64,000 bases of DNA from Bradyrhizobium sp. (GCA_004799435.1 SSMV01000169.1:980-64979), one strand, 5' to 3'. Positions 16,862-32,664 are shown, counted from the stretch's first letter. Translations and numbers: made by a program. Notes: generated by a model from the letters alone, not told the origin.

Positions 16862-18469
16862 CTAGAGGGCCGCGGGCGGCAAGGGCGGCTTGCCAAGGAT
16901 CATGTCGGCCGCCTTTTCAGCGACCATGATCGTCGGCGCATTGGTATTGCAGGACGGGACGAAGGGCATCACCGAGGCGTCGACGACGCGGATGCCCATG
17001 AGCCCACGCAGCTTGAGATCCGGCGTTACGACAGCCTCCGCGCCCGAGCCCATGGCGCAGGTTCCCGCCGGATGATGGTCGGTCTTGCAGGAGCGATAGG
17101 CGTATTGCGCCAGGTCCTCGTCGGTGTTGAGACCGTCGCCCGGCAGGCGCTCCGCCAGAACATAGGGCTTCAGCGCCGGCTGGCGCAGAATGTCGCGCGC
17201 CAGCCTAAGGCCCTTGATGGCGCATTGGCGATCGTAAGGGTCAGCCCAGTAATTGGGATCGATGAGCGGCGCCGCTTTCGGATCGTCGCTGGCGATCCGC
17301 ACCGTGCCACGCGAGCGGGGGCGCAAGAAGGCCGAGTTCAAAGTCACGCCGGGATTTTTCATCGCCGCGACCCCCGCCTCGATGCCGGAGCCGAGACCGA
17401 GGTGGAATTGAATGTCGGGCGAGCGCGCTTCTCTGTCGGCGTACCAGAAGCCGCCCGTCTCGAAGAGCGTCGAGGTCACCGGTCCGCTCTTGAACAAGAG
17501 ATATTCAAGACCTGCCCAGGCGGTGCGATGCGGGCGCGCGACGCGGTCATAGGTGTGATCGCCGGTGCATTCCGAGATCGCATAGAGATCGAGATGATCC
17601 TGCATATTCGAGCCGACGCCGGGCAGGTCGTGAACGACCGCGACTCCCGCGGCTTTCAGATCGTCGGCCGGACCGATGCCGGAAAGCTGCAGCAGGCGCG
17701 GCGAACCGATAGCGCCGCAACTGATGATGATTTCCCGGTCGGCGTTGAGGGTCGCCGTCCCCGTCCCGGAGGCGATCGTCACGCCCACCGCGCGGCCGTT
17801 GCTGACCTCGATCTTCATCGTTTGCGTATTGAGGCGAACGCTAAGATTTTTGCGACCGAGGATCGGCTTCAAAAAGGCGCTTGACGCTGATGAACGCTCG
17901 GCATTGCGCGTCGAGAGCTGATAATGGCCGATGCCGTCCTGCACGGCGCCGTTGAAATCGTCGTTGAAGGGAATTCCATATTCCTGCGCGGCGCGTAGGA
18001 AGGCGTAGCTGATTGGCGGCGGACTGACCGGATAGGAAACGCCGAGCGGACCGCCATAGCTATGGTAGGCGTTGTGCAGCTTCTGATTGTCCTCGCTGCG
18101 CTTGAAATAGGGGAGGACCTCGCGATAGCTCCAGCCCTGAGCGCCGGCGTCGCTCGCCCAGGAATCATAGTCCTTGGCGTTGCCGCGCGTATAGAGCTGC
18201 GCGTTGATCGTCGAGCCGCCGCCGATGATCTTGGCCTGCGTGTACCAGATGACGCGGCCGTCAAGATGCTTTTGCGGAACGGTGCTCCATCCCCAGCTCG
18301 CGACGCCCTTGGTCATTTTCGCGAAGCCGGCCGGCATACGAAAAAGCGGGTTCCAGTCGCCACCGCCCGCCTCGAGAAGCAGCACCTCGATCGAGGGATC
18401 GGCGCTCAGGCGGTTCGCCAGCACGCAGCCGGCGGGACCGCCGCCAACGACGATGTAATCGTAGCCCAT
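16862..18469 (-). CDS. GMC flavoprotein oxidoreductase, L-sorbose 1-dehydrogenase-like
   Basis: GGGPAG, MPAGFAKMT, GGGSTINA, PGVGSNMQDH, HPAGTCAMG and CNTNAPTIMVAEKAAD. Strongly resembles the Gluconobacter L-sorbose dehydrogenase as I remember it (MPVGFAKMT, GGAFWY, PDLQFH). Confidence 0.85.
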   Translation of the reverse strand: MGYDYIVVGGGPAGCVLANRLSADPSIEVLLLEAGGGDWNPLFRMPAGFAKMTKGVASWGWSTVPQKHLDGRVIWYTQAKIIGGGSTINAQLYTRGNAKDYDSWASDAGAQGWSYREVLPYFKRSEDNQKLHNAYHSYGGPLGVSYPVSPPPISYAFLRAAQEYGIPFNDDFNGAVQDGIGHYQLSTRNAERSSASSAFLKPILGRKNLSVRLNTQTMKIEVSNGRAVGVTIASGTGTATLNADREIIISCGAIGSPRLLQLSGIGPADDLKAAGVAVVHDLPGVGSNMQDHLDLYAISECTGDHTYDRVARPHRTAWAGLEYLLFKSGPVTSTLFETGGFWYADREARSPDIQFHLGLGSGIEAGVAAMKNPGVTLNSAFLRPRSRGTVRIASDDPKAAPLIDPNYWADPYDRQCAIKGLRLARDILRQPALKPYVLAERLPGDGLNTDEDLAQYAYRSCKTDHHPAGTCAMGSGAEAVVTPDLKLRGLMGIRVVDASVMPFVPSCNTNAPTIMVAEKAADMILGKPPLPPAAL

Positions 18470-18484
18470 CAGCCTACCTTCAGA

Positions 18485-19984
18485 TCAATGAAGCTCGGTC
18501 TTGACGATATGGTCCGCGACGCGCAGCGCCTGCGCCGCAATCGTCAGCGAGGGATTGACCGCCGCCGAGGTCGGCAGACACGAAGCGTCGACGACGAAGA
18601 GATTGGGGTGATCCCAGGCGCGGCAGTAAGGATCGAGCGGCGATGTCGCGGGATCCGCGCCGATACGAATGGTGCCGCATTGATGTGACGGCGTGCGGCG
18701 ATCGAAGGGCCGCGTCAGAACGATCGGATAGCCCGCCGCGCGCAGCCGCTCTTTGAAGGCGTCGACGAGTTTCAGATGCGTCCCCCAGTTGCTGCGCTTC
18801 CAGTCAAGATGGATTTGGCCGCCGTTCACGGTGACGCGGCTCTCCGGATTGGGAAGGTCCTCGCTCATCGCGTACCAGTCGACCGCGCGCCGCGACAGCG
18901 GCGAGAGAAGCCATTCCGGAAAACGCCGCAGGTTCGCTTTCAGGATCGGCGCGCTCACGCGGCCAAGCAACTGGATATTGCCGAGCGGCGCGCCGCCATG
19001 TCCATCATCGAAGTAGAAGTCGTTGACGCCGAGCGTCTTCTGATAGATCGAGTCATTGACGGCTCTGGGGTCGATCGCCAGCATCGCGGTCGTATTGTGA
19101 TTCATGAAATGCCGCCCGACCATGCCTGATCGATTGGCGATGCCGCCGTCGCGCGAGGAGAGCAGAAGGACGGCGGAATTGACCGCGCCGGCCGACAGGA
19201 TGACGGTCTTGGCCACTATGCGCTTGCGTTCGCCGTCGATCGTCGCTTCGACGCCGGATATTCGTTTTCCGTCGGCGTCCAGCAACAGGCGTTCGACCTT
19301 GGCGCGCTCGCGCAATTCGACATTGGGATAGCGAAACGCCTCGGCGAGCCCGCAGCTTTCGGCGTCCATCTTGCCGAAGCCGGTATCGGGAAATGCGTCC
19401 CAGGGCGTCTTCGCCCGCGCCAGCCAGCGATCGATGTCGACCCCTAGGGGCAGCGAGAATGGGTGCAGGCCGACGCGCGTCATGCGCTCGCGCACAAGCG
19501 CGATCGCCGGCTCGTCGGGAACGGGCGGAAAGGGATAGGGCGCGGAATGGTCCGGCTCAGTGGGATCGCCGCCGAGCGCGCCATGCGCGCGATAGAGTCT
19601 TTCCGCACGACCATACCAGGGTTCGAGCTCGCCATATTCGAAGGGCCAGCCCGGCGTCGCGCCGTCAGGATAGTCGACCGGCCGGAAGTCCCGCGCCCGG
19701 TAGCGCAGCAGGACCGCGCCATAGAGTTTGGTGTTTCCCCCGACGTAATAATAATTGCCGGGATTGAAAGTTACGCCGGCGCCGTCGATCCAGGATTCCT
19801 GCGGCCGGTACACGCCGCGCTGGAATATGGCGCGCGCGTCGCGCGCGTCGGGAGAATCCGGCAAGCGCGAGCCGCGCTCGAGGATGAGGATTTTCGCGCC
19901 GGAGGGCGCCAATCCGGCCGCGCAGGTCGCGCCGCCCATTCCCGATCCGACGATCAGAATGTCAACCGTCTCAGGATCTGTCAT
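18485..19984 (-). CDS. Second GMC-family flavoprotein oxidoreductase (different subfamily)
   Basis: GSGMGG, VGGNTKLYGA, GRHFMNH, SHQCGTIRIG and PTSAAVNPSLTIAAQALRVA. Confidence 0.88.
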   Translation of the reverse strand: MTDPETVDILIVGSGMGGATCAAGLAPSGAKILILERGSRLPDSPDARDARAIFQRGVYRPQESWIDGAGVTFNPGNYYYVGGNTKLYGAVLLRYRARDFRPVDYPDGATPGWPFEYGELEPWYGRAERLYRAHGALGGDPTEPDHSAPYPFPPVPDEPAIALVRERMTRVGLHPFSLPLGVDIDRWLARAKTPWDAFPDTGFGKMDAESCGLAEAFRYPNVELRERAKVERLLLDADGKRISGVEATIDGERKRIVAKTVILSAGAVNSAVLLLSSRDGGIANRSGMVGRHFMNHNTTAMLAIDPRAVNDSIYQKTLGVNDFYFDDGHGGAPLGNIQLLGRVSAPILKANLRRFPEWLLSPLSRRAVDWYAMSEDLPNPESRVTVNGGQIHLDWKRSNWGTHLKLVDAFKERLRAAGYPIVLTRPFDRRTPSHQCGTIRIGADPATSPLDPYCRAWDHPNLFVVDASCLPTSAAVNPSLTIAAQALRVADHIVKTELH

Positions 19985-20007
19985 CGCGTCACTCGCCCGG
20001 CCCGCAA

Positions 20008-21120
20008 CTAGACCCGGCGGCTGGTCTGCGGATCGAACAGAACCGCCTTGTCGAGATTGAATGCGAAGGAGACATTTTGTCCCGGCCGCACGTCGGCGTC
20101 GGCGCGCATCCGCGCGGTGACTTCCTTGCCGGCGATCTTCGTCACCACGAAAGTGTCCGAGCCGGCCGGCTCGACGAGATCGACATGCGAGGCGAAAGTC
20201 GCGATGTTTTTCGACTTGCGGTCGGCGCTTTCCGGGTCGCTCACCGCCTCCGGGCGAATGCCAAGAATGACGATACCGCCGTCGCGCAGCTTCGTCGCGT
20301 CGGCGCTGTTCGGCGCCGGCAGGACGATCGGTTCCGCGCCGGGGCGGTCGACCACGATCGAAGCGGCGCCGTTGGTCTTCGACACTTTCGCCTCGATGAG
20401 ATTCATCGAGGGCGAGCCCATGAAATCGGCGACGAAGAGATTGGCCGGCGTGTTGTAAATCTCGTAGGGGCTGCCGACCTGTTGCAATTCGCCGTCCTTC
20501 AGCACGGCGATGCGGGTCGCGAGGGTCATCGCCTCGATCTGGTCATGCGTGACATAGACGATCGTCGTTCCGGTCTGGTGATGAAGCCGTTTGATCTCGA
20601 TGCGCATGTCGACGCGCAATTTGGCGTCGAGGTTGGAGAGCGGTTCGTCGAACAGGAACACGCGCGGTTGGCGCACCAGAGCCCGGCCCATGGCGACGCG
20701 CTGGCGCTGGCCGCCTGACAGCTGGCTCGGCCGCCGATTGAGCAAATGCTCGATTTGCAGCGTCTTGGCGACATCGGCCACCGCCTTGTCGCGCTCCGGC
20801 TTCGGCACGCCGCGCATTTCCATGCCGAAGGCCATGTTCTGCGCGACCGACATGTTGGGATAGAGCGCGTAGGACTGGAACACCATCGCGATGTCGCGCT
20901 TCGAGGGATGGAGATCGTTGATTACGTCGCCGTCGATGCTGATCTCGCCGGAGGTGATCGATTCCAGTCCGGCGATCATGTTGAGCAGGGTCGATTTGCC
21001 ACAGCCCGACGGCCCGACGAGAACGAGGAAGCCGCCCTTCTCCAGGGTCAGATCGATGCCCTTGATAATCTCCAGCGCGCCGAAGCGCTTGCGCAGAGCG
21101 TTGATCTCAAGAAAGGCCAT
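20008..21120 (-). CDS. Sugar ABC transporter ATP-binding protein (MalK/MsmK family)
   Basis: GPSGCGKST, LSGGQRQRVAMGR, FDEPLSNLDAKLR and a C-terminal TOBE/OB region. Confidence 0.96.
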   Translation of the reverse strand: MAFLEINALRKRFGALEIIKGIDLTLEKGGFLVLVGPSGCGKSTLLNMIAGLESITSGEISIDGDVINDLHPSKRDIAMVFQSYALYPNMSVAQNMAFGMEMRGVPKPERDKAVADVAKTLQIEHLLNRRPSQLSGGQRQRVAMGRALVRQPRVFLFDEPLSNLDAKLRVDMRIEIKRLHHQTGTTIVYVTHDQIEAMTLATRIAVLKDGELQQVGSPYEIYNTPANLFVADFMGSPSMNLIEAKVSKTNGAASIVVDRPGAEPIVLPAPNSADATKLRDGGIVILGIRPEAVSDPESADRKSKNIATFASHVDLVEPAGSDTFVVTKIAGKEVTARMRADADVRPGQNVSFAFNLDKAVLFDPQTSRRV

Positions 21121-21123
21121 GAT

Positions 21124-22071
21124 CTATCCCTTCACCGCGCCGGCCATCAGACCGCGCACGAAATAACGGCCGCCGACGATATAGACGAACAGCGTCGGCC
21201 CCGCGGCGATGATCGCTGCGGCCATATTGACATTATATTCAACGATGCCCGTCGAGGTGTTGACGAGATTGTTCAAGGCGACCGTCATCGGCGAGGAGTC
21301 GCCCGCCGCAAAAGTCGAGCCGAACAGAAAGTCGTTCCAGATGTTGGTGAACTGATAGATCACCGTCACGATGATGATCGGCGTCGAATTCGGCAGAAGG
21401 ATGCGACGAAAGATCTGAAAAAAACTCGCGCCGTCGATCTGCGCCGCCTTCACCAATTCGGTCGGAAACGCCTCGTAATAGTTGCGGAAGAACAGGGTGG
21501 TGAAGCCGAGGCCATAAATGACGTGGACGATCACCAGATTGACGGTCGGATTGCCGAAGCCGAAAGCGTAGCCCGTCGCATCGATCAGCGAATTGCCGAT
21601 CTCGCCGAGATAGCCGAGGATCACCGCCATCGGAATGATGACCGACTGGAACGGGATGAAGCAAGCAAACAGCATCATGCCGAAGACCAGTTTATGGCCG
21701 GGGAAGCGCCATTTGGTCAGCACGTAGCCGTTCAACGCGCCGAGCATGGTCGAGATCGCCACCGCCGGCACGACCATTTTGATCGAATTCCAGAAATAGC
21801 CGGCGATGCCGGCCGTGTCCGAAACGCCGATGCGCGCCTCGCCCCAGGCCTGCACCCAGGGGTCGAAAGTCAGGTGATGCGGCAGGGCGAACATATTGCC
21901 GCCGGTCACTTCGTCGAGCGGCTTCAGCGATGTCATCACCATGACGACAAGCGGAATGAGATAGACGAAAGCAAAGAGGAGCAGCAGGCCGTAAATCACC
22001 ACGCGGGTGAGATTGGAGTGGCGCGCCGGCTCGCGGGCAGGCGGCGACGTGATGAGATCGGCGGCGCTCAT
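21124..22071 (-). CDS. Carbohydrate ABC transporter permease (MalG-type)
   Basis: EAA loop ELVKAAQIDGAS and IWNDFLFG. Its ATG overlaps the upstream stop (ATGA); the ORF track over-extends it. Confidence 0.93.
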   Translation of the reverse strand: MSAADLITSPPAREPARHSNLTRVVIYGLLLLFAFVYLIPLVVMVMTSLKPLDEVTGGNMFALPHHLTFDPWVQAWGEARIGVSDTAGIAGYFWNSIKMVVPAVAISTMLGALNGYVLTKWRFPGHKLVFGMMLFACFIPFQSVIIPMAVILGYLGEIGNSLIDATGYAFGFGNPTVNLVIVHVIYGLGFTTLFFRNYYEAFPTELVKAAQIDGASFFQIFRRILLPNSTPIIIVTVIYQFTNIWNDFLFGSTFAAGDSSPMTVALNNLVNTSTGIVEYNVNMAAAIIAAGPTLFVYIVGGRYFVRGLMAGAVKG

Positions 22072-23018
22072 CGACCCTTCTCCCGAAGCTCGGAATAGAG
22101 ATAGGGCACCATGATCGCGGCGATGGTCATCAACATGATGACCGCGGCGGTCGAGCCGACCGCCATCTGATTGCGGGTGAAGGTGAAGGAATACATGAAG
22201 GTCGACGGCAACTCCGCCGCGCCGCCGGGATTCTTGCCGGTGACCGAGAGCACCAGATCGTAGGATTTGATCGCCATATGGGTGAGAATGATGATGGCGG
22301 ACAGAAAGACCGGCCGCATGATTGGGATAATGATGCGCCGGTAGGTCTGAAAGGCCGACGCGCCGTCGATCTGCGCGGCTTTGATGATTTCGCCGTCGAC
22401 GCCGCGAAGCCCGGCGAGGAACATCGCCATGACGAAACCGGACGTCTGCCAGATTCCGGCGATGGCGACGCAATAGATCATCATGCGCGGATTGACGACC
22501 CAATCGAAATGAAAACTCGTCCAGCCCCAGTCGTGCATGGCTTTCTCGAGCCCGATGCCCGGATCGAGAAACAGTTTCCAGGCCGTGCCGGTCACGATGA
22601 AGGACAGCGCGAGCGGATAGAGATAGATCGGCCTCAAGATGCCTTCGCCGCGGATCTTCTGATCGAGCAGGATCGCCAGCGTCAGGCCCAGCACCAGACA
22701 GAAAAAGACATAGAGGCCGCCGAACAGGCCCATGTTGACGATCGCCGTGTACCAGTTCGACGGCGGGTCGGATTGAAAGGTCCAGTCCCACAGGCGCCGG
22801 TAGTTCAGCAAGCCGACGAGATGCGTGCTCGCGAAGGCCTTGGAATTGGTGAAAGAGAGAAAGAACGTCCACAGGTTGAAGCCGTAGACGAAGACGAGCA
22901 CCAGAATGAAAGACGGCGCCAGGACGAGCTTCGGCAAAAGATTTTGCAGGCGCTGTCGCGCCAGTCCGCGACGAGCGCGAGTCGTTTTGACCACGGTCGG
23001 CGCCACACTTACGGTCAT
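22068..23018 (-). CDS. Carbohydrate ABC transporter permease (MalF-type)
   Basis: EAA loop EIIKAAQIDGAS and IWQTSGFVMAMFLAGL. Confidence 0.93.
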   Translation of the reverse strand: MTVSVAPTVVKTTRARRGLARQRLQNLLPKLVLAPSFILVLVFVYGFNLWTFFLSFTNSKAFASTHLVGLLNYRRLWDWTFQSDPPSNWYTAIVNMGLFGGLYVFFCLVLGLTLAILLDQKIRGEGILRPIYLYPLALSFIVTGTAWKLFLDPGIGLEKAMHDWGWTSFHFDWVVNPRMMIYCVAIAGIWQTSGFVMAMFLAGLRGVDGEIIKAAQIDGASAFQTYRRIIIPIMRPVFLSAIIILTHMAIKSYDLVLSVTGKNPGGAAELPSTFMYSFTFTRNQMAVGSTAAVIMLMTIAAIMVPYLYSELREKGR

Positions 23019-23053
23019 CGAACGGACCCGGCCTTATCTGAAACGGGGACGAA

Positions 23054-23080
23054 CCCTCCCTCGCGCAAGGCGAGGGAGGG
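23054..23080 (-). other. 11-bp GC stem-loop immediately downstream of the substrate-binding protein gene (mRNA stabiliser or partial terminator)
   Basis: ccctccctcgc-gcaag-gcgagggaggg is a perfect stem; the U-tract on the minus strand is weak. Confidence 0.65.
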
Positions 23081-23091
23081 CTTTTATCAGA

Positions 23092-24357
23092 TTATTTGGC
23101 GTTATTGAGCGCCTTGTCCAGCTCCGCAACGGCGGCGTCGGACGTCTTGATCTCGCCGTGGAAGAACTTCGTCACCACGTCGTGATAGGCGCCAGCGACC
23201 GCCGGCGGCTGCGCGTAGTTCTGCGCCATGGAGCCGACGAAGGTTCCGGCCGCGTTGGCGGCCTTGACGTCGGCGATGCCCTTCTTGCCGCACATGTCGA
23301 AGGCGGTGTCGGGAACATCCATACGCGCCGGCACCGAACCCTTGACGACGTTGAACGCCGACTGGAAGCTCGGGCTCATCGTCGCGTCGGCGAGCGCGAG
23401 CTGCGCGCCCTGGCGGTCGGCCGAGACCTTGAACATCGCGAACATGTCGGTGTTGTAGATCACGGAGCCGTCGGTGCCGGGGAAGCGATAGCAAAGGAAG
23501 TCTTTGCCCGCTTCCTTGTTGGCGGCGCGGAACTCGCCCTTCGCCCAGTCGCCCATCACCTGAACGAGCGCGTCGCCCTTGATCACCATGGCGGTCGCGA
23601 GGTTCCAATCGCGGCCGGCGTAGTTCGGGTCGACGTAATCGCGCAGCTTGGCGAGATTGTCGAAGGACTTCTTCATCGTGTCGGACTTCAGAGCGCCTTC
23701 GTCCAGGTCGACGAACGCCTTCTTGTAGAATTCGATGCCGCCGGTGGAGGCCACGACCGAATCGAAGAGGGTCGCTTCCTGCCACGGCTGGCCGCCGAGC
23801 GCGAGCGGGATGACCCCCGCCGCCTTCGCCTTGCCAAGCAGCGCAACGAAATCGTCGAAGTTCTTCGGCTCGGTTCCGCCGATCTTGTCCATCACGGACT
23901 TATTGATCCACACCCAGTTGACCGAATGGATGTTGACCGGAACCGCGTCCCACTTGCCGTCCGTTGTGGTGAACTTCTGCAGGGCCTGCGGAACGACCTT
24001 CGCCCAATCCTCCTTCTTGGCTAGCGACGAGATGTCGCCGAGCTTGCCGGCTTCCGCGTAGTCGACCGCGAAATAACCGAGGATCTGCGAGGCGGTGGGC
24101 GGATTGCCCGCCGCGACCATCGCCTTCAGGGCGGTCATCGCGCCTTCGCCGCCACCGCCGGCGATCGGCACGTCCTTCCAGGCGTAGCCTTCTTTGGCGA
24201 GATCCTGCTTGAGGACGTTCAGCGCGGCTGCTTCGCCGCCCGAAGTCCACCAATGCAGCATCTGGATTTCTTTGTCCTCAGCGGCAATGGCGCCTGAGGT
24301 CAGGCCGAGCGCTCCCGCGGTCATCACGCTCGCCATCAAAATCGAACGAAGTTTCAT
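23092..24357 (-). CDS. Sugar ABC transporter substrate-binding protein (glucose/mannose GtsA-like family)
   Basis: Signal peptide, QMLHWWTSGGEAAAL, VPVNIHSVNW, LALGGQPWQ, DWNLATAM and MGDWAKGEF. Confidence 0.92.
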   Translation of the reverse strand: MKLRSILMASVMTAGALGLTSGAIAAEDKEIQMLHWWTSGGEAAALNVLKQDLAKEGYAWKDVPIAGGGGEGAMTALKAMVAAGNPPTASQILGYFAVDYAEAGKLGDISSLAKKEDWAKVVPQALQKFTTTDGKWDAVPVNIHSVNWVWINKSVMDKIGGTEPKNFDDFVALLGKAKAAGVIPLALGGQPWQEATLFDSVVASTGGIEFYKKAFVDLDEGALKSDTMKKSFDNLAKLRDYVDPNYAGRDWNLATAMVIKGDALVQVMGDWAKGEFRAANKEAGKDFLCYRFPGTDGSVIYNTDMFAMFKVSADRQGAQLALADATMSPSFQSAFNVVKGSVPARMDVPDTAFDMCGKKGIADVKAANAAGTFVGSMAQNYAQPPAVAGAYHDVVTKFFHGEIKTSDAAVAELDKALNNAK

Positions 24358-24445
24358 GGGCTAACCTTCCTATTACGCTCCCTCCGCCGGATACGGCCCG
24401 GCTGCCGGATACAGGAGTCTTTGCCGACTCCCGATTGCTGCGATT

Positions 24446-25975
24446 TCAGGCTCCGCGTGGGAGCCACCAACTCGTTCTCGGACCGGTGTGGACGTGAAAC
24501 GTCTTTTCCTCGGTGTAGTCTTTCACCGCGTTGCGCCCCAATTCGCGGCCGACGCCCGACTGGCGATAGCCGCCGAACGGCAGTTCCGGCGTTCCGTCCA
24601 TGAATGTGTTCACCCAGATCGTGCCGGCGCGCACGCCGCGACCGACGCCGATGGCCGTGTCGACGTCGCGGCTCCAGACGCTGGCGGACAGGCCGTAGTC
24701 GGTGGCGTTGGCGAGCGCGATCGCTTCCTCGCGCGTATCGAAACTCAGCGTGACGACAACCGGGCCGAAGACTTCAGCGCGTGCGATCGCCATCGCCGCA
24801 GTCACCTTGTCGACGATTGTCGGCGCCATGAAAAACCCGCTCGACTCCAGCCTGCCGCCGCCCGCCCGAACCTGCGCGCCGTCGCGTTCGGCGGCAGTTA
24901 CGTGATCCTCGATCTTCCCGAGATGATCCGAAGTGATGATCGCGCCGACGCGCGTATCCGCATCGAGTGGGTCCCCGACCTTCACGCTCCTGGCGCGCGC
25001 CGCCAGACCTTCGATGAACTCATCGGCGATGCTCGAATGAAGAAGCAAGCGGGAGCCGGCATTGCAGCATTCGCCCGCGTTGAAATAGGCGCCGAACGTG
25101 GCGGCGTCGAGCGCCGCATCCATATCCGCGTCGGGAAAGATCAATTGCGGGTTCTTGCCGCCAAGCTCCATCGAGACTTTTTTCAATGTCGCGGCGCCCG
25201 CCGCGACGGCCGCGCGACCCACCCGCGTCGAACCGGTGAAGGAGATCATGTCGACCTCCGGATCGGCGGTGAGCGGCGCGCCGACCTCCGGCCCGTATCC
25301 CGTCACGACGTTGCAGACGCCTTCCGGCAGGCCGGCCTCGGCCAACAGGTTCATCAGATGCAGCGTCGAGGCTGACGTCATCTCGCTCGGCTTCACGACG
25401 CATGTGCAGCCTGCGGCGAGCGCGAAAGGCAGCTTTTGCGACACGATCAGAAACGGGAAATTCCACGGCGTGATGATCGAGACGACGCCGATCGGTTCCC
25501 TCAGCACCACGCCCAACCGGTCGGCGCCGAGATTTGCGTAGCTTTCGCCCGAAAGCTCTCTCGCCAATGAAGCGGCGTAACGCCAGATGTCCGCGGCGCC
25601 TTCGATTTCGCCGCGCGCCTGAGCGAGCGGCTTTCCCGACTCCAAAGTGTCGAGAATTGCGATCAGTTCACGATCGCGGTCGATCAGATCGGCCGTCTTC
25701 AGGAGAAGACGCGCGCGGTTGGACGCCGTCTCGCGCGGCCACGGTCCATTGTCAAAGGCGAGGCGCGCAGCGGCGATGGCGGCGCGCGCATCCTCCGCGC
25801 GACCGCGCGGGATGCGCGTCACGACGACCCCATGCGCCGGGCTCGATCGCTCGATCATCTCGCCGTCGCCGCCAACCGCGCGACCCGCGATGCTCATCGC
25901 GCGATCGCGCGGAAAGCGCGCGAGCGCGTCGTTCAGCTTCTTCGTGTCAACGGCGATGCGTGCGGGGGCGTTCAT
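24446..25975 (-). CDS. NAD(P)-dependent aldehyde dehydrogenase, L-sorbosone dehydrogenase (SNDH)-like
   Basis: ITPWNFP, FTGST, MELGGKN, catalytic GECCNAGSR and GGYRQSGVGRE. ERSSPAH..VTRIPR and the C-terminal GPRTSWW recall Gluconobacter SNDH. Confidence 0.9.
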   Translation of the reverse strand: MNAPARIAVDTKKLNDALARFPRDRAMSIAGRAVGGDGEMIERSSPAHGVVVTRIPRGRAEDARAAIAAARLAFDNGPWPRETASNRARLLLKTADLIDRDRELIAILDTLESGKPLAQARGEIEGAADIWRYAASLARELSGESYANLGADRLGVVLREPIGVVSIITPWNFPFLIVSQKLPFALAAGCTCVVKPSEMTSASTLHLMNLLAEAGLPEGVCNVVTGYGPEVGAPLTADPEVDMISFTGSTRVGRAAVAAGAATLKKVSMELGGKNPQLIFPDADMDAALDAATFGAYFNAGECCNAGSRLLLHSSIADEFIEGLAARARSVKVGDPLDADTRVGAIITSDHLGKIEDHVTAAERDGAQVRAGGGRLESSGFFMAPTIVDKVTAAMAIARAEVFGPVVVTLSFDTREEAIALANATDYGLSASVWSRDVDTAIGVGRGVRAGTIWVNTFMDGTPELPFGGYRQSGVGRELGRNAVKDYTEEKTFHVHTGPRTSWWLPRGA

Positions 25976-25986
25976 GGTCCTCGGTC

Positions 25987-26760
25987 CTATCGGCCGCTGA
26001 AAACTGGCGCGCGCTTGGCGCGGAAAGCCGCTCGGCCTTCAGCCAGATCTTCGGTGTAAGCCGTAAGCGCGCCTGCGAGCCCCTCGATCGGAGCATCCCG
26101 ATCCTCCCCTTCGGCCGCATTGATCATCGACTTGATCATTTGAACTGCGAGCGGCCCACGCTTGGCTATATCTGCAGCAAGAACGTGCGCGCGAGAAGCC
26201 CCTTTGCCTTTTGCCACGACTTCATCGACGAGTCCGAGCGTTAGAGCTTCCTCCGCCGTGAAGACTGCGCCGGCCAGCGCCATTCGTCTTACAATAGAGG
26301 CGCCGAAGCGACGCACGAGTCTCTGCGTGCCCGACCAGCCCGGCGCCATGCCCAATCCCGATTCAGGAAGACCGAGTTTGACGCCGCTCTCGGCGATGCG
26401 AATGTCGCCAACAGCGGCAAGTTCCAGGCCTCCGCCCAAGGCGTGACCTGCCAGCACGACGATCAACGGCACGCGAAGACGCGCCAGGGCTTCCAGAGCG
26501 CGGTGTCCGGCGCGCGTCCAGTCGCGCCACATTTCCAAAGGCGGCAGATCGCCCCAAGCCGCGATGTCGCCGCCCGCGCAAAAGGCCTTGCCCTCGCCCG
26601 ACAGGATCGCCACTCGCATGTCAGTGGACGCGTCGATCGCCCGCGCGCTTTCCAAAAGAGCGTCGATCATCGATCGGTCGAGCGCGTTCAGCTTGTCCGG
26701 TCGCTTCAGCGTCAGGAACGCGCAAGGGCCTTCGAAACGCAATTCGACAAAGGCATTCAT
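25987..26760 (-). CDS. Enoyl-CoA hydratase/isomerase (crotonase) family protein
   Basis: RPDKLNAL, AFCAGGDI, GHALGGGLEL, LGLPESGLG and WSGTQRLVR; both catalytic-type Glu positions are present. Confidence 0.92.
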   Translation of the reverse strand: MNAFVELRFEGPCAFLTLKRPDKLNALDRSMIDALLESARAIDASTDMRVAILSGEGKAFCAGGDIAAWGDLPPLEMWRDWTRAGHRALEALARLRVPLIVVLAGHALGGGLELAAVGDIRIAESGVKLGLPESGLGMAPGWSGTQRLVRRFGASIVRRMALAGAVFTAEEALTLGLVDEVVAKGKGASRAHVLAADIAKRGPLAVQMIKSMINAAEGEDRDAPIEGLAGALTAYTEDLAEGRAAFRAKRAPVFSGR

Positions 26761-28358
26761 TGCAGCGTCTCCCGCGCCGGCCGTAGCTGCAGATTGAACG
26801 GCTCAGGGTTGAACAGCGCCGCGTCCATCGTCCGGACGTGCTGGGCCACGCGAAGCGGAAATTCCGCCTGCGCGAGAATGTCGCGCTCGAGATCGACGCC
26901 AAGCGCGATCTCTATGACCGTCACGCCGTCGCGCTCCAGGCGCATAACGCAACGTTCGGTGACATAGACAATGTCCTGTCCCTGCGCGACGGCGCGCGGA
27001 CCGGAGAAGGAAATCTGCTCGACCGCTTCGACGAGCTTTTTGACTTTACCTTCCTTGACGATCGAAACCGCGCCATCGCGCACGTCGAGCTTCGCCCCGG
27101 CCGTGAAATAGCCGGAGAAGACGATCTTTTTTGCCCGCGCGGTGATGTCGACAAAACCGCCGGCGCCGGCGGTCACATGCGGACGCACGCCGAGCTTGGA
27201 CACATTGACGGAGCCGCCCTTGTCGATCTGCAGGAAGGAGAGCAACGACATATCGAAGCCGGCGCCCTGGAAGTAAGTAAATTGGTGGGGCGACTGGACA
27301 ATCGCCTCGGCGTTGGAAGCGCAACCGAACTGGAAATCGAGCAGCGGCACGCCGCCGACGGCGCCCTGTTCGATGACCCAGGTCACCGCGCCGTGGCGGC
27401 CTTCCTCAATCAGGATGCGCGGCACATTTGCAGATATGCCGAAGCCGATATTGACGGCGTCGCCGTCGCGCAGCTCCTGGGCGACGCGTCTGGCGATCAC
27501 TTTGGCAATGTCGAACTTCGGGATTTCGAACGACGACAGCGGCCGAAAGATCTCGCCGGAGATCGCCGGCTCATAGACGGTGTTGGTCGTCTGCAACTGA
27601 TCGGGCGCGACGACGATATAGTCGACCAGAACGCCCGGCACGACGACGTCATGGGGACGGATCGTGTCGGCGGCGGCGAGACGCTTAACCTGCGCAATGA
27701 CGATCCCGCCATTGTTGCGAACCGAGAGCGCCTGATCGAGCGGCCCCAGCACGCCGCCTTCATGTTCGTAGGAGAGATTGCCGCGTTCGTCGGCCGTCGT
27801 GGCGCGAATGATCGCGATATGCGGAGTGATCGTCGGAAAGAAGAGCCATTCATCGTCAGCGAAATTGACGCGCTTGACGATCGGATCGACGGCGGCCTTA
27901 GCGTTCATCGCGCAGCCCTCATGGAGCGGATCGACAAAGGTCTCCATGCCGACTTTCGTCAACACGCCCGGCCGCTTGGCGGCGGCTTCGCGATGAATGT
28001 CGAAGAGAATGCCAGAGGGGACGTTGTAGGCCGGGATCGCGTCGTCGCAGATCATCTTCCAGATCGCCGGCGGCTCGGCCGAGGACGGCCCGGACGGATA
28101 AGAGCCCGCCAGCACTCGCGCCAGGCATCCGGATTTCGCGATATGATCGACGCCCTTGACGCCCCACATGTCGCCCGCCGCGATCGGGTGCAATGTCGTG
28201 AGATCGCGCGGGTGACCGTCGGCGTCGAATCTTTCTCCGATCGCTTTAAGAACCGCGTCCGGGCAGCCAAGCGCCGAAGAGGACGAGACCGTTACGATCG
28301 CGCCATCAGGAATGAGACAAGCAGCGGCGGCGGCGGAAATGACTTTTTTCTTCGCCAT
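26757..28358 (-). CDS. Acyl-CoA:acetate/3-ketoacid CoA transferase (family I, fused alpha/beta, YdiF/Pct-like)
   Basis: AIIRATTADERGN, NGGIVIAQV, NIGFGIS, catalytic IEQGAVGG and GAGGFVDIT. Confidence 0.92.
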   Translation of the reverse strand: MAKKKVISAAAAACLIPDGAIVTVSSSSALGCPDAVLKAIGERFDADGHPRDLTTLHPIAAGDMWGVKGVDHIAKSGCLARVLAGSYPSGPSSAEPPAIWKMICDDAIPAYNVPSGILFDIHREAAAKRPGVLTKVGMETFVDPLHEGCAMNAKAAVDPIVKRVNFADDEWLFFPTITPHIAIIRATTADERGNLSYEHEGGVLGPLDQALSVRNNGGIVIAQVKRLAAADTIRPHDVVVPGVLVDYIVVAPDQLQTTNTVYEPAISGEIFRPLSSFEIPKFDIAKVIARRVAQELRDGDAVNIGFGISANVPRILIEEGRHGAVTWVIEQGAVGGVPLLDFQFGCASNAEAIVQSPHQFTYFQGAGFDMSLLSFLQIDKGGSVNVSKLGVRPHVTAGAGGFVDITARAKKIVFSGYFTAGAKLDVRDGAVSIVKEGKVKKLVEAVEQISFSGPRAVAQGQDIVYVTERCVMRLERDGVTVIEIALGVDLERDILAQAEFPLRVAQHVRTMDAALFNPEPFNLQLRPARETLQ

Positions 28359-30403
<2,045 letters not shown>

Positions 30404-30588: not shown

Positions 30589-32664
30589 TTGGCCCCGCCC
30601 GTCCCGCAATCCATCCTCGACGGATTGACCGACGTGACCATGCCTCGGCTGGCCAATGAAAGGCCGCCGGGGGATCTCGCGAGGGTCGGGCCCTATATCT
30701 TGCCCATCCAGCGCAGCGAAGCGCTTGTGCTTGGCAGCGGCGCGGCTGGCTTACGCGCCGCCGTCGAGTTGAAACGTCGCGATGTCGACGTTGTGGTCGC
30801 AAGCCAGAGCGCCTTCGGCGGAACTTCAGCCTGTTCAGGCTCCGATAAACAAACGCTGCACACCGCCAACAGCGCCGGACGCGGCGACGATTTCCAGGCG
30901 CTCGCCGATGCGCTGGGCGCCGGCGGCGCGATGGACGAGGACACCGCCTATGTCGAAGCGGTAGGTTCGGCGCGGGCGCTCGCCTCGCTTCAATTCATGG
31001 GCCTGCCGATTCCTCAGGATCGGCTGGGCGGCGTGTTGCGTTATCAAACCGACCATGACGAGATCGGCCGCGCGACAAGCTGCGGGCCTCGCACCTCGCG
31101 TCTCATGGTGCAGGCGCTGGCGCGCGAGGCGATCCGTCTTGAGATTCCGATCTTCAATCACACGACGGGCGTTCGCATTCTTGTTGCGGACGACGCGAGC
31201 CCGCGCGCAGTCGGCGTGATTGCCGCCGCGCCGGAAAAGAGAACGGCGGAAAATCCCTACGGTCTCACGGTCTTCCTTTCCGACGCCATTGTCCTTGCCG
31301 CCGGCGGCCCCGGCGAGCTCTATCGCGACAGCGTCTATCCGAAACATTGTTTCGGATCGCTCGGCCTCGCATTGGAGGCCGGCGTCGAGGCGGTCAATCT
31401 GACCGAAAGCCAATTCGGCATCGGCACGCCGCGCTATAATTTTCCGTGGAATCTGTCGGGCACTTACGTGCAATGCATGCCTTATATTTTTTCGCGCGAC
31501 GCGCGGGGCGTCGAACATAATTTTCTAACTGAGTACTACCGCACGACGCAGGAGCTCGCGTCCAACATCTTCCGCAAGGGCTATCAATGGCCGTTCCATG
31601 CCACGCGCATGCTCGACTTCCGATCGAGCCTGCTCGACCTCGCCGTCTATCGCGAGACCCGACTGCAGCGAAAAGTGTTCATGGATTTCAACCGCAACCC
31701 GCTGCCCGCGCCCGGCGACAGGCCGTTCAGCCTCGATCGTCTGGAGGACGACGTGCGCGCCTATCTAGAGAAGAGCGGTGCCCTGCTTGAGGCGCCGATC
31801 GATCGTCTGCGGAAAATGAACCCGCTCGCGATCGAGCTCTACAAGCGCTACAAATATGACATCACGCGCGATCCGCTCGAATTTGCGATCAACAATCAGC
31901 ATATGAATGGCGGCCTCGCCGTCGACGCCTGGGGCCGAACGACTCTCGCCGGCTGCTACGCCATCGGGGAGGCGGCGGGAACTCATGGCGTGACGCGGCC
32001 CGGCGGCGCCGCGCTGACCGCCGGTCAGGTCTTCGGTACGCGATGCGCCGAGCATATCGCCTCGATGCGCAAGCCTCACAAGACAGTCAATTCTGAGTCG
32101 CGCGCGATCGAAGCGGCCGTCGCGAGAATCATCGACGCCCTCAAAAGCGAGAACGGGTTGAGCGCGAAGTCGATCCGCGACGAAATCCAGGCGCGCATGA
32201 GCGATCACGCCGGAATTCTTTGCAAGCGCGATGACGTCAATCGCGCCAAGACGGCGGCGGCCGCCTTGAACCAATCGATTCGACAGCAAGGCGTCGCCTT
32301 CGCCGGCGCCAATGAGGCGCTGCGGGCGCTGCAGTGGCGGCAATCCGCTCTGGCGTCGGAAGCCATTCTCACGGCGCTGGCGTTCTATCTCGATCGCGGC
32401 GGCGGCAGCCGCGGCGCGCGCGCCGTTTGCTCGTCGAGCGGCGATCAGGTTCCCCAGGGCAGAAGCGGCCCCATCGAACAGGCCCGCTTCGTTTCGGAAC
32501 GGCCGCAGGATCGCGCCGAACAGATTCACATCCGATTGCGCGACGAAGCGTTCGTCTGCGAGCCACGGCCCATTCGCAAACGAAACCGCAACGACTCGCC
32601 GTTTTTCGAACGCGACTGGCCGGACTATCTGACGGGCGCGATCCATGATCCGCCTCCCGGATGA
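30589..32664 (+). CDS. Stand-alone FAD-binding protein of the SdhA/FrdA/NadB fold, function unknown
   Basis: LGSGAAGLRAA, VLAAGGPG, QHMNGG, GEAAGTHGVTRPGGAAL and the C-terminal GGSRGA. No Fe-S or membrane subunits are nearby. Start codon is uncertain. Confidence 0.82.
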   Translation: MAPPVPQSILDGLTDVTMPRLANERPPGDLARVGPYILPIQRSEALVLGSGAAGLRAAVELKRRDVDVVVASQSAFGGTSACSGSDKQTLHTANSAGRGDDFQALADALGAGGAMDEDTAYVEAVGSARALASLQFMGLPIPQDRLGGVLRYQTDHDEIGRATSCGPRTSRLMVQALAREAIRLEIPIFNHTTGVRILVADDASPRAVGVIAAAPEKRTAENPYGLTVFLSDAIVLAAGGPGELYRDSVYPKHCFGSLGLALEAGVEAVNLTESQFGIGTPRYNFPWNLSGTYVQCMPYIFSRDARGVEHNFLTEYYRTTQELASNIFRKGYQWPFHATRMLDFRSSLLDLAVYRETRLQRKVFMDFNRNPLPAPGDRPFSLDRLEDDVRAYLEKSGALLEAPIDRLRKMNPLAIELYKRYKYDITRDPLEFAINNQHMNGGLAVDAWGRTTLAGCYAIGEAAGTHGVTRPGGAALTAGQVFGTRCAEHIASMRKPHKTVNSESRAIEAAVARIIDALKSENGLSAKSIRDEIQARMSDHAGILCKRDDVNRAKTAAAALNQSIRQQGVAFAGANEALRALQWRQSALASEAILTALAFYLDRGGGSRGARAVCSSSGDQVPQGRSGPIEQARFVSERPQDRAEQIHIRLRDEAFVCEPRPIRKRNRNDSPFFERDWPDYLTGAIHDPPPG

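Follow-up and report, generated by a model that had tools for sequence, protein, structure and literature searches.

An operon that joins relatives of sorbose and sorbosone dehydrogenases to 1,5-anhydro-D-fructose reductase: a candidate route for 1,5-anhydro-alditol breakdown in Bradyrhizobium

By what route are 1,5-anhydro-sugars degraded in aerobic soil bacteria? The question is raised by a 64,000-nucleotide stretch of DNA from Bradyrhizobium sp. (GCA_004799435.1 SSMV01000169.1:980-64979; the window hereafter, with positions counted from its first letter), in which two oxidoreductase genes, termed here GMC-1 and ALDH (aldehyde dehydrogenase), lie in one operon with afr, an orthologue of the gene for 1,5-anhydro-D-fructose reductase (Afr). 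The established product of Afr is 1,5-anhydro-D-mannitol; the next step of aerobic 1,5-anhydrofructose catabolism has lacked an assigned enzyme since 2006, and according to a 2025 review no aerobic 1,5-anhydroglucitol pathway is known (PMC12441222). Judged from sequence, the pair is a plausible answer to the question. GMC-1 and ALDH appear to form a consecutive couple, alcohol to aldehyde to carboxylate, within a conserved module; in the window this module is combined with afr, with a second flavoenzyme (GMC-2) and with an ATP-binding cassette (ABC) importer of the glucose type. Context and chemistry, rather than function, give about an even chance that the native substrate is a 1,5-anhydro-alditol, namely the Afr product 1,5-anhydro-D-mannitol, and that it is oxidised at C6 to an acid, then activated with coenzyme A (CoA) and ring-opened. 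Both genes were recovered as intact open reading frames exactly where the initial annotation had placed them:

16862..18469, minus strand: GMC-1, a cytoplasmic GMC oxidoreductase dependent on flavin adenine dinucleotide (FAD), last gene of the operon (Pfam GMC_N and GMC_C, tree)
24446..25975, minus strand: ALDH, an NAD(P)-dependent aldehyde dehydrogenase (Aldedh domain, 7W5L match, tree)

The first question is what kind of enzymes these are. GMC-1 is a protein of 535 residues with the two-domain GMC fold (GMC_oxred_N, E = 1.6e-50; GMC_oxred_C, E = 1.7e-36; PF00732 and PF05199), an N-terminal FAD motif (VVGGGPAG at residue 7) and the C-terminal catalytic His/Asn region (HHPAGT at 465, CNTNAPT at 507). 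ALDH, 509 residues long, has a full Aldedh domain (E = 5e-164) and keeps the fold and catalytic residues of its family in ELGGKNP, PWNFP and ECCNAG. The initial annotation had likened the two to the sorbose dehydrogenase (SDH) and L-sorbosone dehydrogenase (SNDH) of Gluconobacter. The loci of that genus were fetched with the 7W5L sequence, rebuilt from its alignment; in them SNDH (498 residues) overlaps the start of a 531-residue GMC gene, and the 90%-identity cluster of the latter includes the UniRef entry 'Sorbose dehydrogenase' of G. oxydans. GMC-1 and the SDH of Gluconobacter potus are 48% identical and are reciprocal best hits, a status that holds across genomes with one copy only: the G. 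potus query finds GMC-1 best in the window genome (509 bits, the next match at 265), and GMC-1 finds SDH best in both of two Gluconobacter genomes. ALDH and SNDH are likewise reciprocal best hits (393 bits against 273 for the next match), and residues 21-503 of ALDH align with the G. oxydans L-sorbosone dehydrogenase 7W5L at 49% identity (508 bits, E = 1.5e-151). The catalytic loop of ALDH, ECCNAG at residues 302-307, contains a Cys-Cys pair. In SNDH the corresponding pair is Cys295-Cys296, of which the first Cys is non-catalytic and the second catalytic, and it is conserved in most members of the SNDH subfamily (PMC10602560). A further PDB entry, the S. meliloti aldehyde dehydrogenase 3U4J, matches ALDH at 542 bits; it was rejected as the orthologue from the S. 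meliloti cluster described below, being a third paralogue at 49-51% identity.

Database names would suggest a different pair, choline dehydrogenase with betaine-aldehyde dehydrogenase (BetA/BetB). These are the best NCBIfam names of the two proteins, and the best PDB match of GMC-1 is a choline dehydrogenase. The scores, however, lie under all curated cut-offs (GMC-1 against BetA, 556 versus 605 for PRK02106 and 465 versus 732 for TIGR01810; ALDH against TIGR01804, 460 versus 669), BetA-like GMC proteins encoded beside BetB-like aldehyde dehydrogenases form the outgroup in both of the trees described next, and the context is a LacI-regulated sugar operon, so that this identity is effectively refuted.

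Phylogenies were inferred by maximum likelihood for 67 GMC sequences and for 68 ALDH sequences, BetA/BetB-like pairs serving as the outgroup, and both resolved the same two groups. Clade A contains the window proteins and their S. meliloti chromosomal orthologues (69% identical for GMC-1, 64% for ALDH); clade B contains Gluconobacter SDH or SNDH together with proteins of Paracoccus and many Hyphomicrobiales. The clades are sisters, well apart from BetA/BetB, and in the GMC tree the Shimodaira-Hasegawa-like approximate likelihood ratio test (SH-aLRT) gave 95 for clade A with GMC-1 and 99 for clade B with Gluconobacter SDH. The Cys-Cys pair is present in every clade A or B ALDH with a recovered motif region and in no outgroup ALDH. 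The likeness to SDH/SNDH thus stands as homology, by reciprocal best hits, mirrored trees and the Cys-Cys loop, and does not stand as membership: GMC-1 lies outside the clade of characterised Gluconobacter SDH and ALDH outside that of characterised SNDH. Strictly, the pair is outside the SDH/SNDH clades; broadly, it is their nearest relative, and it is best classified from these trees as a genuine sister lineage. Both clades occur together in eight sampled genomes (G105, G276, G184, G047, G038, G094, G042 and G127), which marks them as paralogous subfamilies that probably differ in substrate. The mirrored GMC and ALDH trees are in keeping with paired action of the two proteins. GMC-1 is also coupled genetically to this SNDH-type ALDH, the two lying 6 kb apart in the same operon with matching splits in the trees.

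What the pair produces is suggested by the genes that accompany it. Two of these lie directly upstream of ALDH in the window:

25987..26760, minus strand: crotonase (enoyl-CoA hydratase/dehydratase, ECH; ECH_1 domain), with a 4-nt overlap with the CoA-transferase gene
26757..28358, minus strand: fused family-I CoA-transferase (CoAT) of the YdiF/FadX type (CoA_trans domain; PDB 2AHU, E. coli YdiF, E = 3e-94)

CoAT is 73% identical to its S. meliloti orthologue. From an order-level sample of 300 genomes, 40 loci of the GMC-1 family were drawn, and a homologue of ALDH, CoAT or ECH was located at most 10 kb from the GMC-1 homologue in 35 of them. In Paracoccus, Sinirhodobacter, Fuscovulum and many Hyphomicrobiales the order is ALDH-GMC-(AKR)-CoAT-ECH, with a ribose-type ABC importer and a zinc-dependent alcohol dehydrogenase (Zn-ADH) upstream; two actinobacterial contigs of the Acidothermaceae show ALDH-CoAT-ECH-...-GMC. 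Every Gluconobacter locus has a CoAT gene directly after SDH, its product 63-65% identical to the window CoAT, and this is followed by a MOFRL/DUF4147 glycerate-kinase-like gene, an acyl-CoA dehydrogenase (ACAD), an SDR and a DUF993 gene, with a LysR regulator upstream:

L003:7965-17227 (G. potus), with others at L010-L015, L020, L026 and L030: Gluconobacter SNDH-SDH-CoAT locus, its CoAT 64% identical to that of the window

That both clades, Gluconobacter included, keep the pair together with the same CoA-transferase and usually with a crotonase is new here; no relevant paper emerged from literature searches that paired anhydro-sugars or SDH/SNDH with either of these two enzymes. A CoA-transferase requires a carboxylate substrate, and its recurrent linkage therefore indicates that the product of the pair is an acid. 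This linkage is the strongest evidence that the GMC enzyme and the ALDH act in sequence to convert a primary alcohol to an acid, and by the same token the acid would be a pathway intermediate and not an end product. It further suggests that Gluconobacter SDH and SNDH belong to a CoA-dependent catabolic operon.

The Gluconobacter and window pairs thus have in common their two families (about 48-49% identity each), the Cys-Cys loop, the CoA-transferase neighbour and presumably the chemistry, in which a primary alcohol beside a pyranoid ring oxygen is oxidised first to the aldehyde and from there to the acid. They differ in layout and in company. The SDH and SNDH genes overlap in Gluconobacter, whereas a transporter and GMC-2 separate GMC-1 from ALDH in the window; the window pair shares its operon with afr, GMC-2, a CUT1 importer and LacI, whereas clade B is linked to LysR in Gluconobacter and, outside that genus, to Zn-ADH, AKR, ACAD, SDR and a ribose-type importer.

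The linkage to afr, which the initial annotation had taken as its guide to the substrate, proved to be conserved. Among 31 other afr-bearing genomes of the order sample, 26, spread over at least 10 families, have a GMC-1 homologue on the afr contig at a distance of 5-13 kb, an observation that is also new here. The afr product, of the Gfo/Idh/MocA type, is highly similar to both of the crystallised and characterised Afr enzymes, that of S. morelense (2GLX; 461 bits, E = 1.6e-137) and that of S. meliloti (4KOA; 449 bits, E = 8.9e-134), over residues 27-355, with the next PDB match at just 110 bits. In the window, 11 tightly packed genes, all on the minus strand, run from lacI at 30403 down to GMC-1 at 16862, in the order lacI-afr-CoA transferase-crotonase-ALDH-CUT1 sugar ABC importer-GMC-2-GMC-1. 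Besides the four listed above, they are:

29366..30403, minus strand: LacI-family regulator, first gene of the operon (LacI and Peripla_BP_3 domains; 49% identical to the S. meliloti orthologue, which has the same position)
28359..29369, minus strand: afr, 1,5-anhydro-D-fructose reductase orthologue (2GLX, 4KOA), its start moved to the ATG at 29369
23092..24357, minus strand: periplasmic solute-binding protein (SBP; SBP_bac_1 domain, signal peptide)
22068..23018, minus strand: CUT1 ABC permease 1 (domain match, S. meliloti orthologue)
21124..22071, minus strand: CUT1 ABC permease 2, its start moved to the ATG at 22071, overlapping the permease 1 stop
20008..21120, minus strand: ABC ATPase of the MalK/UgpC type (domain matches; 68% identical to the S. 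meliloti orthologue)
18485..19984, minus strand: GMC-2, a divergent GMC flavoenzyme (Pfam and PDB matches)

Four-nucleotide overlaps occur at lacI/afr, where by start codon analysis the revised afr start overlaps the lacI stop as ATGA, at CoAT/ECH and at permease 1/permease 2; afr and CoAT abut directly, and the other gaps measure 3-88 nt. This packing indicates co-transcription. Immediately downstream of GMC-1, no terminator-like or promoter-like site was found. GMC-2 is distantly similar to the catalytic subunits of FAD-dependent glucose and fructose dehydrogenases (Pfam, PDB). SBP resembles monosaccharide (glucose) binding proteins, matching 4R2B at 530 bits and 2B3B, a glucose-binding protein, as well as 5DVF and 8HQQ ('binding protein component of ABC sugar transporter'). 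A signal peptide is present in SBP and absent from GMC-1, which places the oxidations in the cytoplasm, on an imported solute. Divergently from lacI, positions 30589-32664 (plus strand) encode a 691-residue FAD_binding_2 flavoprotein; S. meliloti has a DHDPS-family gene in its place, so this neighbour is not conserved.

A close counterpart of the operon is on the S. meliloti chromosome, where the genes from SMc04400 (afr) to SMc04390 have the same order and orientation, with 49% to 73% identity over all eleven proteins. Two genes of that cluster are absent from the window: the one for an SDR, located between GMC-2 and GMC-1, and the one for a MOFRL glycerate kinase, which follows GMC-1. SMc04390 is named 'L-sorbose dehydrogenase' (PMC12542648). 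Literature searches on SMc04390 to SMc04400 yielded no more than a table of proteomics data and a single mention of induction by dextrin, and no function for the non-afr genes. Record CP090106.1 (L001; 3.72 Mb), titled 'plasmid pSymB', carries leuB, asd and an afr cluster of the SMc type; it looks like the chromosome, and the source record is apparently mislabelled. In another genome (L063, G264:C1:4787006-4787992) the afr orthologue has an in-frame TGA and stands in a cluster without ALDH and transporter; this copy may be decaying.

Taken with the structure of the Afr product, the gene content suggests a model. The stereochemical argument of the initial annotation is correct: L-sorbopyranose is 5-hydroxy-1,5-anhydro-D-glucitol and D-fructopyranose is 5-hydroxy-1,5-anhydro-D-mannitol, and SDH chemistry at C1 of sorbose accordingly corresponds to oxidation of an anhydro-alditol at C6, the position of the single primary alcohol of 1,5-anhydro-D-mannitol. 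A 1,5-anhydro-hexose or 1,5-anhydro-hexitol would be imported, and the manno configuration would be reached through the reduction of 1,5-anhydrofructose by Afr, 1,5-anhydroglucitol perhaps being oxidised first at a ring carbon by GMC-2. GMC-1 would then convert C6 of 1,5-anhydro-D-mannitol to the aldehyde, ALDH would convert the aldehyde to 2,6-anhydro-D-mannonate (1,5-anhydro-D-mannuronate), and CoAT would form the thioester. With its acidic alpha-proton (on the old C5) and beta-hydroxyl (on the old C4), 2,6-anhydro-D-mannonyl thioester should be a crotonase substrate; elimination of the beta-hydroxyl would give a 4,5-enol ether, the hydration of which would open the ring to 2-keto-3-deoxy-D-gluconate (KDG) or its CoA ester. 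By Fischer projections, C6 oxidation and 4,5-elimination should yield exactly KDG from the manno isomer and the L-threo isomer from the gluco isomer, which provides a rationale for Afr and possibly for the action of GMC-2 on 1,5-anhydroglucitol.

Several features support this model. The pair is homologous to biochemically known oxidisers of a C1 alcohol and an aldehyde; the crotonase retains both catalytic glutamates, in the motifs GGGLE113LA and LPE133S; SBP is of the glucose type; and the window genome encodes one Eda-type aldolase. The proposed ring opening also follows the logic of unsaturated uronate chemistry (polysaccharide lyases with GH88/GH105), in which the C6 carbonyl acidifies the C5 proton, the C4 substituent is lost, the 4,5-enol ether is hydrated, and the pyranose ring opens to a 2-keto-3-deoxy acid. 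In contrast to those systems, the route considered here would use a thioester and a crotonase on a free 4-OH, and the proteins are non-homologous; the analogy is one drawn from established chemistry. Two other chemistries were set aside. Ring C-C hydrolysis of the BadH/BadI type, by an SDR and a crotonase-family hydrolase, would leave the ether bond intact, and the window lacks the SDR. A role of GMC-1 as 'C-1 oxygenase' would be chemically atypical for a GMC enzyme, as C1 has no hydroxyl.

A substrate closer to those of the named relatives might be considered instead. If GMC-1 and ALDH were true ketose and osone dehydrogenases, L-sorbose or D-fructose would be taken through the osone to a 2-keto-aldonic acid, and Afr would act on osones, which it is known to reduce. 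The closest characterised relatives are indeed SDH and SNDH, and Afr is reported to reduce glucosone to mannose. A 2-keto acid, however, would offer the accompanying crotonase no alpha-proton unless it were first reduced, the co-occurrence of clades A and B in single genomes implies different substrates, and SBP is of an aldopyranose-binding kind. This identity is therefore quite improbable.

Several observations weigh against C6 oxidation of an Afr product, and the published pathway is one of them. The 1,5-anhydro-D-fructose pathway of S. morelense/S. meliloti (Kuhn et al. 2006, as summarised in PMC12441222) has its first enzyme, the Afr orthologue, in common with the proposal; it then leads, according to that summary, from 1,5-anhydromannitol to mannose through C-1 oxygenation by an unidentified P450-like enzyme. 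The proposal would replace or parallel the C-1 oxygenase, and its genes are physically linked to afr. The window genome has two P450 genes outside the operon, and the published route could hold if an unlinked oxygenase yielded mannose while GMC-1 and ALDH, merely co-regulated, acted elsewhere, with ALDH, for example, on glyceraldehyde or a late aldehyde. The MOFRL glycerate-kinase genes that recur beside the module would suit this arrangement, hinting at glycerate or glyceraldehyde as an end product. It is nonetheless distinctly unlikely: the oxygenase has not been identified in 20 years (PMC12441222), P450 or mannose-handling genes are present in none of the clusters inspected, the ALDH and GMC genes overlap or abut in clade B, and the ALDH and GMC trees mirror each other, both of which fit consecutive steps.

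The report of a 1,5-anhydroglucitol-active rhizobial SDH, to which the initial annotation had pointed, leads to a second point on the same side. A Sinorhizobium 'sorbose dehydrogenase' reacting with 1,5-anhydroglucitol is indeed on record, in the title of the work of Araki et al. cited in PMC8135088, but the enzyme may be a clade B paralogue and not the afr-linked one. S. meliloti has both module types, the clade A, afr-linked one on the chromosome and a clade B one on pSymA:

L105, CP073679.1 805704-831293: S. meliloti pSymA clade B operon (ribose-type ABC importer, Zn-ADH, ALDH, GMC, ECH, AKR, ACAD)

The GMC protein of this operon is 74% identical to Gluconobacter SDH, and no afr is nearby. 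A group II intron and a ParDE toxin-antitoxin pair break up the pSymA operon of strain ABS7.

The remaining points on this side concern the bond between module and afr. Clade B, to which the characterised SDH and SNDH belong, has no afr or GMC-2 nearby, and the module as such is thus not specific for Afr products. Conversely, afr occurs without GMC-1 in 5 of the 31 genomes; two relatives in the family of the window organism and two other genomes have it in unrelated contexts, and one genome has a split cluster in which afr still adjoins the crotonase gene. The Bradyrhizobium diazoefficiens plasmid pNK6a (L002:15992-20494) carries afr (71% identical), GMC-2 (73%) and an MFS permease among transposases, a unit without GMC-1, ALDH, CoAT and ECH, and ten further Bradyrhizobium plasmids are similar, the unit being carried on conjugative plasmids; the gene most tightly associated with afr is therefore GMC-2 and not GMC-1. 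In S. meliloti the SBP orthologue smc04396 is reported to be dextrin-induced (PMC4960864), and the literature searched holds no report of anhydro-sugar induction for this transporter. Finally, ALDH is missing from 4 of the 14 clade A (afr-type) clusters:

L060, L062, L065 and L073 (genomes G292, G184, G236 and G084): afr-type clusters without ALDH, in which the crotonase gene is followed directly by that for SBP

In these, either an ALDH encoded elsewhere is supplied in trans or GMC-1 performs both oxidations, as choline oxidase does.

Such observations would be expected if the operon served some other pyranoid or glycosidic substrate, GMC-1, ALDH, CoAT and crotonase being a general CoA-dependent route that forms and dehydrates sugar acids, and Afr having a side role, for example in the removal of reactive 1,5-anhydrofructose or osones. 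The wide occurrence of the module without afr, beside Zn-ADH, AKR, ACAD, SDR and a ribose-type transporter, speaks for this explanation, as do the occurrence of afr without the module and the dextrin induction of smc04396. Yet the translationally coupled set lacI-afr-CoAT-ECH is kept in more than 10 families, and the genome with the split cluster keeps afr beside ECH. Moreover, afr-like paralogues are found again beside GMC-1-like genes: on contig 27 of genome G128 (L098 and L099), Gfo/Idh/MocA genes 46% and 41% identical to afr are paired with genes 48% and 44% identical to GMC-1, one of the two loci having an ALDH as well and the other a GMC-2. Reductases of this type and GMC proteins of this type have therefore come together, or stayed together, more than once. 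A substrate unrelated to Afr is, on balance, an unlikely explanation, and oxidation of 1,5-anhydro-D-mannitol at C6 is preferred.

The operon occurs patchily, perhaps as a result of horizontal transfer. GMC-1 is present in none of 8 other sampled genomes of the family to which the window organism belongs, and afr in 2 of these 8. Soil and peat metagenomes contain many close homologues (81-89% identical), and some NCBI records bear the name Roseiarcus. Megablast of the region against plasmids gave partial matches only, at about 75% identity, and a search of sequencing runs returned only soil, peat and permafrost metagenome contigs, containing 0.05-0.08 of the sampled words, and no run marked as RNA.

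On a wider reading, GMC-1, ALDH, CoAT and crotonase would constitute an undescribed aerobic, CoA-dependent opening of the non-hydrolysable ether ring of 1,5-anhydro-hexitols that replaces the 'C-1 oxygenase', and Gluconobacter SDH and SNDH, instead of being dedicated producers of 2-keto-L-gulonate, would catalyse the two opening steps of a sister catabolic pathway that is likewise CoA-dependent; this wider proposal is put forward tentatively, its prospects being clearly less than even. The genes beside afr provide a concrete candidate set for the step after Afr. An enzyme that degrades 1,5-anhydroglucitol would matter for lowering this compound in the neutropenia of glycogen storage disease type Ib (GSD-Ib) and G6PC3 deficiency (PMC12441222), and enzymes specific for it would be directly useful in clinical assays of that analyte. 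The SDH/SNDH pair is used industrially for the vitamin C precursor 2-keto-L-gulonate. The literature found does not address the physiological role of that pair; the conserved company of genes for a CoA-transferase, a crotonase and a glycerate-kinase-like protein suggests that it serves catabolism, and in production strains such a pathway could draw on the 2-keto-L-gulonate that is meant to accumulate.

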